A stretch of DNA of 64,000 nt from Sphyrna mokarran (taxonomy: Eukaryota): positions 69,688,001 to 69,752,000 of the forward strand of contig JAGIQG010000009.1 in the NCBI GenBank assembly GCA_024679065.1, written 5' to 3'. Within the stretch, counting starts at the first letter, position 1. The number at the start of each line of letters is the position of its first letter. Shown piece by piece: positions 6,225 through 61,495 of the stretch. The notes under the pieces were generated by a model. The model searched no databases, had not been told where the DNA came from, and worked only from the letters and a program-made list of their open reading frames with translations. A program made the translations under genes and the position numbers.

Positions 6225-8873
6225 AAGAACAAAGAACAAAACAGCACGGGAAACAGGCCCTTTGGCCCAACGAGCCTGCGCGCCACCTCACTGTTCCCAC
6301 TTCTACCCATGATCCCTGTCTATGTTTATAGATCAAAGAACAAAGAACAAAACAGCACGGGAAACAGGCCCTTCGGTCCAACGAGCCCATGCTGCCACCC
6401 TGATGTTCCCACCTCTCCCTGTGATCCCTGTCAATGTTTATGGATCAATAGATTAAAAACCAAATTTGAGACAATTTAGGGAGAATTTGTTTTGTCAATT
6501 AGCCTAAGGGCACATTTTTGGGATGTGGTAGGAAACCGGAGCACACGGAGAAAACCCATGCAAGCACGGGGAGAATGCACAAACTCCCACAGACACAGGC
6601 CCAAATCCATGTATCTGCAAAGCACAGCAATAGTCACTGAGCTGTCATGTTGCCCATCAAATGGTCCAGGTCAAGCGTACACTAACAATGTGAAGCACTA
6701 GAATACTCTCGAAAAAAATCCAAGAGCAGCCCTCTCACGACGCATCATGTGTATGCTCCTTGTTAGACAACAAGGTGGACCAAAGCACCTGTAAGATAAA
6801 AACAAGTACATCAACATCATCATCTATTTACACACTTCCCAAGGACTCCGAAGGTCATGACCTCTATTTTAAATCAGTTTTCTATACCCCTCTATTCCCA
6901 TTCTGTTCATGTGCCCATCTAAGTATTTCTTAAATAGCTCCAGAGTGCCTGCCTCCACCACTTGGCAGTGCATTTCATACCCCCACTGCCCTCTGTGTGA
7001 AAAAACTCCCTCTAGCATCCAAATTATACCTTACCCCCCTCATCCTAAGCCCGTGACCCCTTGTGCTATTCGAGTCCATCCGAGGAAAAAGCTTAACCCT
7101 GTTTACTCTATCTATACCCCTCATCATCTTGTACACCTCGATTAGATCTCCTCTAAGTCTATGTCTTTCTAAGGAAAACAGCCCCAATTTGCCTAACCTC
7201 TCCTCGTAACTCAGACCTTCCATACCAGGCAGCATCCTGGTAAACCTCCTCTGCATTCTCTCCAGAGTCTCTACGTCCTTTCGGTAGTAAGGCGACCAGA
7301 ACTGGACACAGTATTCCAAATGAGGTCTAACCAATGTTTTATACAACTGCAACATTAAAGGCCAGCTCTTGTACTCTATACTCCTTCCTATAAAGGCTAG
7401 CATATCACATACTTTCTTCACAACCTTCTCCACCTGCTCTGCCACCTTCAGAGACTTATACACCTGCACCCCCAGGTCCCTCTGTGTTTCTATACTCTTA
7501 ATAGGTCCACTCTTTATCATATACCTCCTCCCTACATTCTTTCTCCCGAAATGCATCACGTCACATTTATCAGGATTGAAATCCATCCGCCATCTATCTG
7601 CCCAAGCTACCAGCCTATCTATGTCCTGCTGTATTGCCTGACAATGCTCCTCACTATCCGCAAGTCCAGCCATCTTTGTATCATCTGCAAACTTGCTGAT
7701 CACTCCACTTACTCCTTCTTCCAAGTCATTTATATATATTACAAATAGATGAGGTCCCAGTGCCGAGCCCTGCGGCACACCACTAGTGACCGACCTCCAG
7801 CTGGAAAAACACCCTTCCACTATTACTCTCTGTCTCCTACTACCAAGCCAGTTACTTATCCATCTAGCTACCTGTCCTTGTATCCCATTAGCCTGGACCT
7901 TTTCAATTAACCTCCCATGAGGGACTTTCTCAAACGCCTTACTAAAATCCATATAGACGACATCAGCAGCTCGCCTTTGTCGACTGTTTTCATCACCTCC
8001 TCAAAAATTCTACCAGATTTGTAAGACACGACCTCCTTTTAACAAAGCCATGCTGCGTATCCCTAATCAGATCGCAACGCTCTAAGTGCCTATACATCCT
8101 ATCTCTAAGAATCCCCTCCAACAGCTTCCCTACCACTGATGTCAAACTCACCAACCTATAATTTCCAGGGTTATCCCTACTACCCTTTTTAAACAACGGT
8201 ACAACATTAGTTATTCTCCAGTCCTCTGAGACCTCACCTGTGTCCAAAGAAGAGACAAAGATTTGCATCAGAGGCCTAGCAATTTCACCTTGTGCCTCCC
8301 TAAGCAGCCTGGGATAAATGCCATCAGGCCCCGGAGATTTATCAGTTTTAATGCTACCTAGAAGCTCTAACACTTCCTCCCTCGGTATGGATACTTCCCT
8401 CAACTGGTCTACAGCTCCCTTAGAGACAGGACCGGTCAACAAGCCCCTTTCCTTCGTGAATACTGACGCAAAGTATTCATTCAGGATCTCCCCCATTTCC
8501 TCGGGCTCTAAGCACAGTTCCCCTCCTCTGTCCCTAAGAGATCCGATTTTTCCTCTAACCACCCTTTTATTCCTAAAATAGGAGTGAAAAGCTTTTGGAT
8601 TTTCCCTAATCCTATCCGCCAAAACCATTTCATGCCCCCTTTTTGCCCTTCTAACTCCCCGTTTGAGCTCCCTCCTACTCTCTCTGTATTCCTCCAACGC
8701 TGTTTCCAGCTGCTTTGACCTAACATATGCCTCTCTTTTCCTCCTAACCAAGTCCTCAATATCCCTAGTAATCCACGGCTCTAATCCTACCTTTCCCATC
8801 TTTCCTCTTAGCCGGCACATACCTTTCTTGCAACATTTTCAGTATTCCCTTGAAAGAATCCCACATGCCTAGC
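6225..8873 (-). mobile_element. CR1 LINE, 5'-truncated, same family as the 53.7-57.7 kb copy; ORF2 split by a frameshift (7993-8820 and 6975-7952)
   Basis: Translations are nearly the same as those of 54374-55360 and 56076-57158 (KSPGPDG, GVPQGS, FADD). Same long 3' UTR and (AAGAACA)n tail on the + strand. Confidence 0.95.
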
Positions 8874-53370: not shown

Positions 53371-53685
53371 TAAGGATGTCCTTTTAGGAAGAAACTCTGC
53401 CATCCTCACTTGTTCTGGTTTACATATGAATCTAAGCCAACAGCAATGTGGTTGATTCTTAACTGCCTTCTGAAATGGCCTAACCAGCCACTCATTTATA
53501 CCCAAGGAGAAGATTCATCACCAACTTCTCATGGATAAATGGAACTGCACAATAAATACTGGCTTTAACCAAGCTGGTACATTCCTACTAATGAATTTAA
53601 AAACATTGGAGAAGGTAGAATCACTCGCTAATGGAGTATAGCTCACAAAAAACAACATTTTTCACTGTATCCCAATACGTGTGAC

Positions 53686-53877
53686 AATAAGATCCTACAG
53701 CTGAATGTGTGGCTGAAGGACTGGTGTAGGGCAGAGGGTTTCATATTTGTGGATAACTGGGAAGTCTTTGTGAAAGAAGGGCACCTGTATAGAAGGGACG
53801 GGGAACACTTAAATGGGAAGAGCATGAGTATCTTAGCTGGGAGGTTAGCTGGAGTGTTTCGGCAGGATTTAAACTAA
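53686..53877 (+). pseudogene. C-terminal remnant of CR1 ORF1 (SGNH esterase-like)
   Basis: Translates as NKILQLNVWLKDWCRAEGFIFVDNWEVFVKEGHLYRRDGEHLNGKSMSILAGRLAGVFRQDLN*. The DGxHLN motif is typical of CR1 ORF1 esterase domains. Confidence 0.85.
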
Positions 53878-56800
53878 TATGGAAGGGGGGAGGGGCTGAG
53901 ACCGATAGCTCAGTCGAGAGAGAGATGGAAGATAGAGTAAGCTTGGATGAGAAGAAATACACCAGGGAGAAGGAGGTACCGAGTGGTCTTGGAGGTCTGG
54001 AGTGTGTCTGTTACAATGTGAGGAGCGTAACAGGAAAAACGTTTGAACTTAGGGTCTTAATGTTTGCGAGGAACTTGGATGTGGTTGCGGTGACGGAGAC
54101 GTGGTTAAAGGAAGGGGAGCAGTGGCAACTGAATATTCCTGGGTATAAGTGTTTCAAGTGTGACAGAGGAGGGTGCAGAAGAGGTGGGAGATTGGCGTTG
54201 TTAGTTAGGGAGAGCAACACGGCGGTGCAGAGGGAGGACAATACAGAGGAGTTAGGAGTGGAGTCGCTGTGGGTGGAATTGAGGAATAGAAAGGGGACGA
54301 TTACTATGCTAGGGGTGTATTATAGGCCACCCAACAGCCCTCGGGTAGTTAAGAAGGCATATGTAAACACATTTTGGATAGGTGCAGAAAGAACAGAGTT
54401 GTTATAGTGGGAGATTTTAATCTCCCTGGGGTGGATTGGAAGGTACCTAGAGCTGGGGGTTTGGATGGGCAGGAATTTGTAAAATGTGTACTGGAAGGAT
54501 CGTTGGAACAGTATGTGGCTAGCCCGACTAGAGAAGGGGCTATATTGGATTTAGTTCTGAGTAATGAGCCAGGGCAGGTGGTTGATGTTGTAGTAGGGGA
54601 ACATGTGGCTAACAGTGACCACAATTCTGTCTACTTTAGGATACAGATGGAAAAGGATGCTTGTTGCCCTAGGGGCAGGGTGCTGAATTGGGGGAAGGCT
54701 AACTACAGTTGGATTAGGCAGGAACTTATGGAAACTGATTGGGAACGGTTGTTCGAGGGTAAGTCCACGCTAGGCATGTGGGATTCTTTCAAGGGAATAC
54801 TGAAAATGTTGCAAGAAAGATATGTGCCGGCCAAGAGGAAAGATGGGAAAGGTAGGATTAGAGAGCCGTGGATTACTAGGGATATTGAGGACTTGGTTAG
54901 GAAGAAAAGAGAGGCGTATGATAGGTCAAAGCAACTGGGAACAGAGACAGCGTTGGAGGAATATAGAGAGAGTAGGAGGGAGCTCAAACGGGGAGTTAGA
55001 AGGGCAAAAAGGGGGCATGAAATGATTTTGGCAGATAGGATTAAGGAAAATCCAAAGGCTTTGTACTCCTATGTTAGGAATAACAGAGAGGTTAGAGGAA
55101 AAATTGGACCTCTTAGGGACAGAGGAGGGGAACTGTGCTTAGAGCCCGAGGGAATGGCAGAGATCCTGAATGAATACTTTGTGTCGGTATTCACGAAGGA
55201 GAGGGGCTTGTTGACAGTTCCTGTCTCTGAGGGAGCTGTGGACCAGTTGAGGGAAATATCCATACTGAGGGAGGAAGTGTTAGAGCTTCTACGTAGCATT
55301 AAAACTGATAAATCTCCGGGGCCTGATAGCATTTATCCCAGGCTGCTTAGGGAGGTGTGAGGTGAAATTGCTGGGCCTCTGACGCAAGTCTTTGTCTCTT
55401 CTTTGGACAGAGGTGAGGTCCCAGAGGACTGGAGAATAGCTAATGTTGTAGTTTTGTTTAAAAAGGGTAGTAGGAATAACCTTGATAGGTTGAGGGAGCT
55501 GGGACTCTTCTCCCTGAAGAGACGAAGGCTGAGAGGCAACCTGATAGACGTTTATAAAATGTTGAGAGGAATAGATAGAGTGGATTCTCAGAGGCTATTT
55601 CCCCGAGCTGAAATAGTCACTACGAGAGGACACAGATTTAAGGTGTAGGGAAGCAAGAACAGAGGAGATGTTAGGGGTAAGTTTTTCACTCAGAGGGTGG
55701 TGATTGAATGGAATCGGCTGCCGTCGGTGGTGGTAGAGGCAAACTCGCTGAGGTCTTTTAAAATACTTCTGGATGAGTACATGGGGTCTAATGGGATTGG
55801 GGGTTATAGATAGGTCTATGGCTTGGTAGGTATAGATGTGATCGGTGCAATTTATGGGCCGAAGGGCCTGTTTGTACTGTAGTGTTCTACGTTCTATGTT
55901 AACCCTGGAAATTATAAGCCGATGAGTTTGACTTCAGTGTAGGGAAGTTGTTGGAGGGGATTCTTAGAGATAAGATGTATAGGCACTTAGAGTTTTGCGA
56001 TCTGATTAGGGATACGCAGCATGGCTTTTTAAGGGGAGGTCGTGCCTTACGAATCTAGTAGAATTTTTTGAGGAGATGATGAAAACAGTCGACGAAGGGC
56101 GAGCCGTTGATGTCGTCTATATGGATTTCAGCGAGGCGTTTGACAAAGTCCCTCATGGGAGGTTAGTTGAGAAGGTCAAGGCTCATGGGATACAAGGACA
56201 GGTAGCTAGATGGATAAGTAATTGGCTTTGTAATAGGAGACAGAGAGTAATACTGGAAGGGTGTTTTTCTAGCTGGAGGTCGGTCACTACTGGTGTGCTG
56301 CAGGGCTTGGTACTGGGACCTCATCTATTTGTAATATATATAAATGACTTGGAAGAAGGAGTAAGTGGAGTGATCAGCAAGTTTGCAGATGATACAAAGA
56401 TGGCTGGACTTGCAGATAGTGAGGAGCATTGTCAGGCAATACAGCAGGACATAGATAGGCTGGTAGCTTGGGCAGATAGATGGCAGATGGAATTCAATCC
56501 TGATAAATGTGAGGTGATGCGTTTGGGGAGAAAGAATGTAGGGAGGAGGTATATGATAAAGGGTAAACCTATTAAGAGTATAGAAACGCAGAGGGACCTG
56601 GGGGTGCAGGTGAACAAGTCTCTGAAGGTGACAGAGCAGGTGGAGAAGGTTGTGAAGAAAGCAAATGGTATGCTAACCTTTATAGGAAGGGGTATAGAGT
56701 ACAAGAGCTGGTCTTTAATGTTGCAGTTGTATAAAATGTTGGTTAGAACTCATTTGGAATACTGCGTCCAGTTCTGGTCGCCTTACTACTGGAAGGACGT

Positions 56801-57708
56801 GGAGACTCTGGAGAGAGTGCAGAGGAGGTTTACCAGGATGCTGCCTGGTATGGAAGGTCTGAGTTACGAGGAGAGGTTAGGCAAATTGGGACTGTTTTCC
56901 TTAGAAAGACGTAGACTTAGAGGAGATCTAATAGAGGTGTACAAGATTATGAGGGGTATAGATAGAGTAAACAGGGTTAAGCTTTTTCCTAGGATGGACT
57001 CGAATAGCACGAGGGGTCACGGGCTTAGGGTGAGGGGGGTAAGGTATAATTTGGATGCTAGAGGGAGTTTTTTCACACAGAGGGTGGTGGGGTATGGAAT
57101 GCGCTGCCAAGTAAAGTGGTGGAGGCAGGCACTCTGGAGTTATTTAAGAAATACTTAGATGGGCACATGAACAGAATGGGAATGGAGGGGTATAGAAAAC
57201 GATTTAAAATAGGGATCATGAGCCTTGGGAGTCCCTGGGAAGTGTGTAAATAGATGATGACATTGATGTTTTTATCCTACAGATGCTTTGGTCCACCTTG
57301 TTGTCTAACAAGGGGCATACACACAATAGGTCGTGAGAGGGCTACTCTTGGATTTTTTTTCGAGAGTATCCTAGTGCTTCACGTTGTTAGTGTACGCTTG
57401 ACCTGGACCATTTGATGGGCAACATGACAGTTCAGTGACTATCGCTGTGCAGATACATGGATTTGGGCCTGTGTCTGTGGGAGTTTGCGCATTCTCCCCA
57501 TGCTTGTTCTGGTTTCCTCTCACATCCCAAAAATGTGCTCTTAGGCTAATTGGCAAAACAAATTCTCCCTAAATTGTCTCAAATTTGGTTTTTAATCTAT
57601 CTATAAACATAGACAGGGATCGGGGTAGAGGTGGGAACATCGGGGTGGCAGCACGGGCTCGTTGGGCCGAAGGGCCTGTTTCCCATGCTGTTTTGTTCTT
57701 TGTTCTTT
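53691..57708 (+). mobile_element. CR1-clade LINE, 5'-truncated within ORF1, with a near-complete but disrupted ORF2 (APE endonuclease + RT) and a long 3' UTR
   Basis: Endonuclease motifs (YNVRS, VTETWL, GVYYRPP, VGDFNLP, LDLVL, SDHN) and RT motifs (KSPGPD, DFSEAFDKVPH, KFADDTK). Frameshift near 54350-54400 and stop at 55358-55360. Tail (TGTTCTT)n. Candidate TSD AATAA at 53686-53690 and 57709-57713. Confidence 0.95.
55482..55899 (+). mobile_element. 3' fragment of a different CR1 subfamily, nested in ORF2 of the 53.7-57.7 kb element
   Basis: Interrupts the host motif KGSR(D/N)N|PGNY. Encodes LRELGLFSLKRRRLRGNLIDVYK. Ends in (GTTCTAT/C)n. Flanked by TAACC at 55477-55481 and 55900-55904. Confidence 0.92.
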
Positions 57709-60292: not shown

Positions 60293-60367
60293 GAATATAT
60301 TATTCTTAAAGGATTATGATGGTGCAATGAAATTATACTTTCCAAATGTGGAGATGAACCAGCCATC

Positions 60368-61495
60368 ATGACAGCTGTTTATGAAGAATATATTGCTCCT
60401 CAGGGCACACTGGTGAAACCTTACTACTGGCTATACTTCACTGAAAGCTGTCCAAAATGTCCATATCACATCAAAACAGGAGAAGAAGCACGTGTTTCCT
60501 ACATTGAATTTTATGAAAGCTTTGGGTTTCCCTATGCTCAACTACAGAGTGGCAGGCATCTGGTCTTCTATGAACTGAAGTTATCATCTGGTACTTTAGT
60601 GCAGAAAGGACAAGTAACTAATTGTACTTTATATCATCTTCATCCAGAATCTATCTTTTTTGATATAGATGGCTATCTAGATACACTTCTGTACTCCTAT
60701 GAAAATATTGCTTACATAACCATCTATTCCAATTACACCCCATGCAATGAAAGACCCCACTACTGTATAAACAAAATGTGTGATTTCTTGGTAAACTATC
60801 CCAGCACAAGGTTGGATATTTATTTCTCTGCCCTCTATCATACTGATGATCATTTTGCTGAATCTGGATGGAATAGAGAAGGTCTCCACAGCTTGGCTTC
60901 ACTTTGGCCAAGGGTTACCCTCAATCCCATTAGCAATGGAACATGGCTGACAATCCTTCATAGGTTTGTGAACGGTGTGCCTCGGACAACGCTTTACAAT
61001 CCAGTTCTGCCTGAGCGAGCTTTTGCCGACCTGAGCAATGCCCATCAGATAGCTGCCATCACTGGAGTTAATCCCTCTTACATAGATGTCGCACCCCGAG
61101 CAAAGAAACATCAAAAGCAACACTTTAAGCCAAGGGATATGGACTTATACCCTATTTCGCAAGCACCTCCGCCAATTGTGAATAGAATGGCGTTAATAGC
61201 TCCACCCCAACTGTACCAAACACTGAAAACTATCGATCTTCCAAACAAGTTGGCTTTGCCTTTGTACATGCACCCACTTCAACAACAGAACATGAAACCG
61301 AAGAACGTGGTGAGACATCTGAACATGCCCAACACATCCAATTGGGAACCACCAGCAACCCCATCACCACACAACATTCAATCAACTGAAACCATCGAAA
61401 TTTTAGAAGCTCCAGTGAAAAGAAGAGGAAGAGCAAACAATTCAAGGCAACAGAGGGAGACACGAAAAAGAGAGAAATCCACGAGAAGGAATTAG
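60368..61495 (+). CDS. APOBEC4: APOBEC4, putative zinc-dependent cytidine deaminase of the AID/APOBEC family; 375 aa, CDS in a single exon
   Basis: Uninterrupted ORF with HPE (HxE) and PCNERPHYC (PC-x6-C, the APOBEC4-type spacing). Blocks matching vertebrate APOBEC4 as I recall it: YEEY..GT.VKPYYWL, CxxCPYHIKTGEEARVS, FYELK.SSG.LVQKG, WNRE.L.SLASLWPRV, KPKNVVRHLNMP, and a basic C-terminus. Confidence 0.97.
   Translation: MTAVYEEYIAPQGTLVKPYYWLYFTESCPKCPYHIKTGEEARVSYIEFYESFGFPYAQLQSGRHLVFYELKLSSGTLVQKGQVTNCTLYHLHPESIFFDIDGYLDTLLYSYENIAYITIYSNYTPCNERPHYCINKMCDFLVNYPSTRLDIYFSALYHTDDHFAESGWNREGLHSLASLWPRVTLNPISNGTWLTILHRFVNGVPRTTLYNPVLPERAFADLSNAHQIAAITGVNPSYIDVAPRAKKHQKQHFKPRDMDLYPISQAPPPIVNRMALIAPPQLYQTLKTIDLPNKLALPLYMHPLQQQNMKPKNVVRHLNMPNTSNWEPPATPSPHNIQSTETIEILEAPVKRRGRANNSRQQRETRKREKSTRRN

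Follow-up and report, generated by a model that had tools for sequence, protein, structure and literature searches.

The CR1 copy in the window

The window, that is the whole stretch of 64,000 nucleotides analysed here, contains a dead copy of a CR1 LINE. The features of this copy are the following:

53686 to 57708, plus strand: dead 5'-truncated CR1 LINE copy, aligned at 91-94% to three near-full-length copies
53686 to 53877, plus strand: 3' remnant of ORF1 (C-terminus of an SGNH esterase) ending in Gln-Asp-Leu-Asn-stop
53868 to 57158, plus strand: ORF2, comprising a 43-codon linker, an APE endonuclease from about 53997 and a reverse transcriptase (RT)
53868 to 53874, plus strand: slippery heptamer U_UUA_AAC in phase with ORF1, intact together with the stop in 27 of 30 family copies
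53875 to 53877, plus strand: ORF1 stop adjoining the heptamer, TAA in the window copy and TAG or TGA in other families
53881 to 53895, plus strand: conserved G-rich tract, candidate stimulator
53894 to 53915, plus strand: hairpin noted earlier, not a feature of the family
53925 to 53927, plus strand: in-frame ATG of the window family (29 of 30 copies), with none in four other families; possible secondary start
55484 to 55900, plus strand: nested 3' fragment of a different CR1 family within ORF2, 66-67% identical to the 3' region of full-length copies

The alignment to the three near-full-length copies starts 188 nt before the end of the heptamer and reaches the 3' tail, the full-length relatives being about 4.7 kb long. 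The ORF1 remnant lies in an open frame (53632-53877) that stands in -1 relation to the next one (53793-54407). The latter contains a weak Exo_endo_phos match (E 5.8e-4, below the Pfam cut-off), and the ORFs after it match Exo_endo_phos_2 and RVT_1, both above the cut-off. ORF2 is disrupted by frameshifts, one stop and one insertion. The nested fragment appears as a gap in the alignment to the full-length copies and is bordered by a short near-repeat.

The genome searched comprises 2.77 Gb, and the window family is represented by 30 loci fetched out of 40 scored, from 2989 candidates. An intact ORF1 was identified in another copy (L018); it encodes an SGNH esterase of 305 amino acids and matches Lipase_GDSL_2 (E 3.8e-9) and OSK, as expected of the esterase-type ORF1 of canonical CR1. 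The ORF2 of the element combines APE endonuclease and RT, also as in canonical CR1. The 3' ends of CR1 elements carry short tandem repeats and no poly(A), and 5' truncation is frequent; all three traits were identified in the window family. Part of this description is given in PMC13343379. The named homologs of this ORF1 come from rays, skates and one shark, which makes a cartilaginous fish the likely host. The chondrichthyan L2 elements lack ORF1 according to the available part of PMC13343379. The architecture, the named ORF1 homologs and the lack of ORF1 in L2 fit a canonical CR1.

Three other observations were made in the window. The long 3'UTR of the window family contains a SINE-like block at 57460-57580, in the same place in 4 of 4 copies compared, a candidate V-SINE. 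A pair of long ORFs with an RVT_1 match at 6975-8838 (minus strand) is probably another LINE fragment, and a further long ORF is found at 60320-61495 (minus strand).

The ORF1-ORF2 junction and its conservation

ORF1 ends in GAT TTA AAC TAA (53866-53877), with the heptamer at 53868-53874 phased in the ORF1 frame directly before the stop, as the earlier note had read it. The positions it gave for the G-run (53881-53895), for the two arms of the hairpin (53894-53900 and 53909-53915) and for the ATG (53925) hold, and ORF2 was correctly placed in the -1 frame, with the ATG as codon 20 counted from the heptamer and the weakly matching endonuclease behind it. The heptamer has the X_XXY_YYZ form of a frameshift site and is phased in the upstream frame; in the -1 frame all three stops behind it (TAA, TAG and TGA) give Leu. 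Counting both strands, the window has 29 copies of TTTAAAC, two of them with a stop directly behind, so a single site is little proof and the excess over chance lies in conservation across lineages. Within the window family the counts for heptamer and stop and for the ATG have little weight, the copies being 92-96% identical.

Other families were searched with ORF1 queries deprived of their last 17 residues, 25 of 150 matches being examined per search. Together with a search by a distant protein ending in Gln-Gly-Asn, these queries yielded five more families in the genome, named by their last residues: RALN, EDLN, GGLN, GALN and GTLN. Among 50 loci (L031-L080), TTTAAAC was present at the predicted ORF1 end in 42, of which 38 had an intact stop; of the remaining 8, some were deleted or ended early and some were mutated. 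Metagenome loci (n=21, 26-44% identity) extended to the junction in 9 cases and stopped short in 12. TTAAAC TAG was identified in all 9 junctions and the leading T in 8, the imperfect heptamer G_UUA_AAC being that of L082. The other 8 junction loci seem to resemble named bird proteins at the C-terminus, and L082 is not among them. A Leu-Asn C-terminus was also found in proteins named from two turtle lineages, a snake, an eel, two birds and a chimaera.

The codon control comprised 11 representatives with 22-78% protein identity and 26 conserved columns; 14 had been tried and 3 were dropped with an open ORF1 that was too short. These representatives were chosen among motif-bearing copies (most copies of each family carry the motif) and are related, amounting to perhaps 4-5 independent groups. 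The only columns with a single codon were the final Leu (TTA in 11/11) and Asn (AAC in 11/11), compared with 0 of the other 24. TTA is the rarest Leu codon in the representative ORFs (14/173, 8%), and AAC accounts for 17 of 56 Asn codons (30%). Conservation beyond the need of the protein is thus found in 2 of 26 columns, both within the heptamer.

Some other cause might keep these bases: a required C-terminal Leu-Asn, a DNA signal, or an antisense pyrimidine tract followed by YAG. Leu-Asn is the end of 74 of 137 homologs, and the look-alike of an antisense 3' splice site is visible at every junction. A constraint on the protein leaves the codons free, however, as in the 24 control columns, and the tail before Leu-Asn varies in length by many residues; the antisense YAG is an automatic consequence of C plus stop. 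RNA-labelled contigs present no joint at the junction, a weak argument as these are contigs only and cannot show expression or splicing (the comparison covered contigs plus one raw-read run yielding 2 reads). Causes of this kind are very improbable. The look-alike on the minus strand of the window (53868-53895) could matter in host introns.

The protein tails were compared in 210 ORF1 homologs, 153 of them ending near the last esterase helix and giving 79 non-redundant tails. These comprise 25 ends in Leu-Asn, 9 in Gly-Asn and 1 in Lys-Asn, that is a terminal dipeptide compatible with XXXYYYZ in 35/79 against a background of 8%. In the other 44 no compatible dipeptide is directly terminal, and 11 of these carry one shifted inward by a residue. 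The position before Leu-Asn has a pyrimidine-only residue in 13 cases versus a purine-only one in 1, and the position before Gly-Asn or Lys-Asn in 0 versus 7 (Fisher p 7e-5); Gln precedes Gly-Asn in 7 of 9 tails and Leu-Asn never. This covariation of the preceding residue is what G_GGA_AAC and U_UUA_AAC would impose, the Gly-Asn/Lys-Asn group being known from protein alone. Distant ORF1 proteins in this group end in Gln-Gly-Asn or Ser-Lys-Asn (protein level only), and its relatives are named from a crab; the search profile behind these tails included the Leu-Asn end. The viral contigs searched contained no DNA for the group, and a further genome search with a distant ORF1 protein ending in Gln-Gly-Asn as query returned Leu-Asn families among the loci examined. 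One ORF1 homolog labelled as a bacterial hydrolase (P0014, 47% identity, Gly-Leu-Asn end) probably represents animal contamination in the record.

In 25 of 30 copies of the window family the -1 frame stays open for at least 50 codons and reaches the endonuclease. In GTLN it is open into the endonuclease in 9 of 10 copies, with a linker of 144 nt, and in the metagenome loci with an endonuclease match it is open in 6 of 7, with linkers of 99, 99, 99, 132, 141 and 252 nt. The -1 frame is fixed across six linker lengths (99, 129, 132, 141, 144 and 252 nt), although it is the minority state in GGLN (15/57) and GALN (3/11). By contrast, the start codon is variable. An in-frame ATG is present in the window family, in RALN and in most bird/reptile-type loci, at varying positions; GTLN, GGLN, GALN and EDLN have none before the endonuclease, with the exception of one mutated GGLN copy. 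The first Met of GTLN is codon 85, behind Glu 82, which aligns with Glu43 of the L1 endonuclease, a catalytic residue.

Two separate insertions, L120 (G000:C113) and L121 (G000:C772), have a common deletion between two short G-rich direct repeats. It removes the heptamer and the stop and joins ORF1 to ORF2 in frame, with 902 and 611 open codons. The exact fused junction was identified genome-wide in these two loci only, and no other private change is common to both; L069 and L146 carry out-of-frame versions of this type of deletion.

These data bear on termination-reinitiation, where a separate ORF2 would be translated, as in L1 and SART1, by ribosomes that start again on the AUG found 48 nt further on or, where there is none, on a non-AUG codon. 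Reinitiation is known for SART1 (PMC3708506, available part) and for mammalian L1 an initiation that does not need AUG is regarded as likely (PMC5009743, available part). In the window family the AUG has a strong context, with a G in positions -3 and +4 of most copies, and in several bird/reptile-type loci an AUG lies 2 nt past the ORF1 stop. In other loci, however, the codon at that place is TCG, TGG or GTG. No conserved AUG is coupled to the ORF1 stop, though a non-AUG restart keeps some probability. Reinitiation also leaves unexplained the invariant TTA AAC, the swap to other heptamer-type ends and the -1 frame over the six linker lengths. It is an unlikely general route to ORF2. The programmed -1 frameshifting proposed in the earlier note, on the other hand, gains support from the comparison across CR1 families, where heptamer, phase and adjacent stop are kept and the ORF2 ATG is not. 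Judged by this conservation, the junction signal is real and deeply conserved, and probably serves recoding. No long natural ORF1-ORF2 fusion protein turned up in a search for them, an absence of little evidential weight.

The G-tract and other downstream elements

The G-rich tract was examined in 16 representatives. In 14 of them positions +7 to +26 have a G4Hunter score that exceeds 97% of local windows. The first GGG is also located at +7 to +12 in 14 of 16, near the spacing of 5-8 nt given in the available part of PMC3919603. The minimum-energy fold contains a two-tier quadruplex in just 8 of the 16.

The hairpin at 53894-53915 noted earlier does exist in the sequence (-10.1 kcal/mol). It folds no better than 200 shuffles (z = 0.07), and its 3' arm needs bases private to the window copy: among 29 other copies, 27 have G at 53912 and all 29 have A at 53915. 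For these two reasons it was rejected as a stimulator of the family. Folding against shuffles and pairing searches identified no conserved hairpin, pseudoknot or long-range partner.

Long-range partners of the G-tract were sought in the rest of the element. A C-rich tract of the 5'UTR is the best pairing partner in GALN, GGLN and GTLN. Against a null of 12 shuffles this pairing stands out clearly in just one GALN copy, and the tract is absent from the 5'UTR of the window family (18 aligned copies), which led to its rejection as a general stimulator. Pairing with the 3' tail of the element was not above the null in three window-family and two GALN copies and was rejected for these two families. 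The G-tract, kept in position, is the only conserved candidate stimulator.

The C-rich tract belongs to a 5'UTR block common to GGLN, GALN and GTLN, formed by a TATA box, a perfect 10-bp hairpin and the tract itself, and located in L177 (about 790-880), L182, L183, L179 and L181, some 1020-1120 nt upstream of the heptamer. About 16 nt of the GALN block are complementary to the G-tract, and a spacing of one or two bases covaries between GALN and GGLN; the window family lacks the block. Rfam gave nothing near the gathering score on one stretch comprising 5'UTR, ORF1 and junction.

The evidence against a fixed -1 frame comes from the length of the G-run. In GGLN and GALN the ORF1 stop is followed by a pure G homopolymer, ranging from 7 to 10 nt in GGLN copies and from 8 to 10 in GALN copies. 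In GGLN (60 copies examined, 57 parsed) the 9-nt run, which gives the -1 frame, is that of the 15 copies mentioned above, and 32 of 57 have 8 nt; the 11 GALN copies are divided into 3 in -1, 4 in 0 and 4 in +1 frame. The old copies of RALN have frames scattered by indels.

Within GGLN the 9-nt length was identified in 9 of 14 interrupted runs versus 6 of 43 pure ones (p 6e-4), and an upstream G7 run is stable in 53 of 55 copies. The G8 copies were considered as a subfamily and this was rejected: no diagnostic site was identified in 64 variable columns between copies of 8 and 9 nt (best p 0.03). One short-read contig crosses the G8 run without a gap, so that G8 is not purely a fault of the assembly; loose ends of short-read contigs belong to a sister family with an interrupted 9-nt run. 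The off-frame runs are likely due to contraction, long G runs being shortened when the element is copied, once it is inserted or in the assembly, because G8 gives different frames in GGLN and GALN.

Alternatively, the frame could be set at the G-run itself, by slippage of the polymerase on the G homopolymer that would leave some transcripts in another frame. The length spread in GGLN and GALN is what such slippage would produce. The ORF1 stop precedes the G-run, however, and a change in length cannot join the two ORFs; moreover, the runs are interrupted and of fixed length in the window, GTLN and bird/reptile-type families. The probability of this explanation is very low.

Proposed frameshifting and comparison with known systems

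With good confidence, though from sequence comparison, esterase-type CR1 LINEs are proposed to make ORF2 by programmed -1 frameshifting, as an esterase-endonuclease-RT fusion. Most ribosomes would terminate at the end of ORF1 and yield the esterase ORF1p. A minority would slip in tandem, with tRNA-Leu moving from UUA to UUU and tRNA-Asn from AAC to AAA, read the C and two stop bases as Leu, and continue through a variable Gly-rich linker into endonuclease and RT. A minor fusion beside abundant ORF1p would fix a ratio like that of gag and pol. The weakest step is the pause, which may be caused jointly by the stop codon next in line and by the G-tract, either folded into a small quadruplex or occupied by a protein. 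In families with an AUG, such as the window family, reinitiation could take place as well.

A broader version of this proposal has about an even chance of being right. It holds that the esterase CR1s of jawed vertebrates and their invertebrate relatives (with G_GGA_AAC, A_AAA_AAC and U-run heptamers) would share a gag-pol-like fusion predating the split of sharks and bony vertebrates, driven by the stop and a short natural G-tract and not by a pseudoknot.

How the two-gene RNA of a LINE is translated into ORF2 protein is called unclear in the available part of PMC3708506, and the slip site offers a short and directly testable answer. Among the retrotransposons of most vertebrates, the CR1 group is the dominant one (PMC13343379, available part). 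If the proposal is true, the predicted protein is no longer a free ORF2p but one in which the esterase is joined to endonuclease and RT, and the cellular -1 frameshift signals would gain a very widespread member whose stimulator is unusual. In the broader version, a natural G-tract would represent a type of stimulator so far demonstrated mainly in engineered reporters. Frameshifting would also explain the ORF2s without AUG and correct the annotation and cloning of intact CR1.

No published description of frameshifting in CR1 was found in the literature searched, although an earlier remark may exist in older CR1 papers or in Repbase. The word 'frameshift' is absent from the text of PMC4120745, PMC3905857, PMC3708506 and PMC4316615 and from the main text and one supplement file of PMC13343379. 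PMC2734521 presents frame-shift mutations only, with nothing on frameshifting at the junction, and 'CR1' does not occur in 300,000 of the 449,034 characters of PMC5009743. The proposal thus concerns a known mechanism, -1 frameshifting, in an element where no description of it was found.

The nearest cases are TRE5-A and TRE3-A of Dictyostelium, APE-type non-LTR elements in which ORF2 needs a -1 frameshift according to the available part of a review (PMC5911963), as proposed here for CR1; the available part of PMC5006619 adds nothing further on this frameshift. They belong to another clade and have an unrelated ORF1, whereas CR1 is an animal element with an esterase ORF1, U_UUA_AAC and the G-tract. 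The canonical vertebrate CR1, as presented in the available part of PMC13343379, has an esterase ORF1 and an ORF2 with APE and RT, the same arrangement as the window family.

The sites of IBV and coronavirus type have the same U_UUA_AAC, which is among the most shift-prone heptamers in mammalian ribosomes (PMC5009743, available part). The viral sites and CR1 both have a -1 overlap, and the viral product is a fusion of structural protein and polymerase. CR1 differs in that no pseudoknot or hairpin stands at the usual distance, the stop adjoins the heptamer and the host is a non-LTR element. With quadruplexes engineered behind UUUAAAC at a spacer of 6-8 nt, frameshifting reached up to about 7%; these constructs are three-tier in the available part of PMC3919603, whereas CR1 is predicted to have two tiers at most, in 8/16. 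Finally, L1, SART1 and CR1 are all LINEs with a bicistronic RNA in which ORF2 depends on the translation of ORF1. As far as the sources available in part go, L1 and SART1 give a free ORF2p, whereas the frameshift reading of CR1 gives a fusion.
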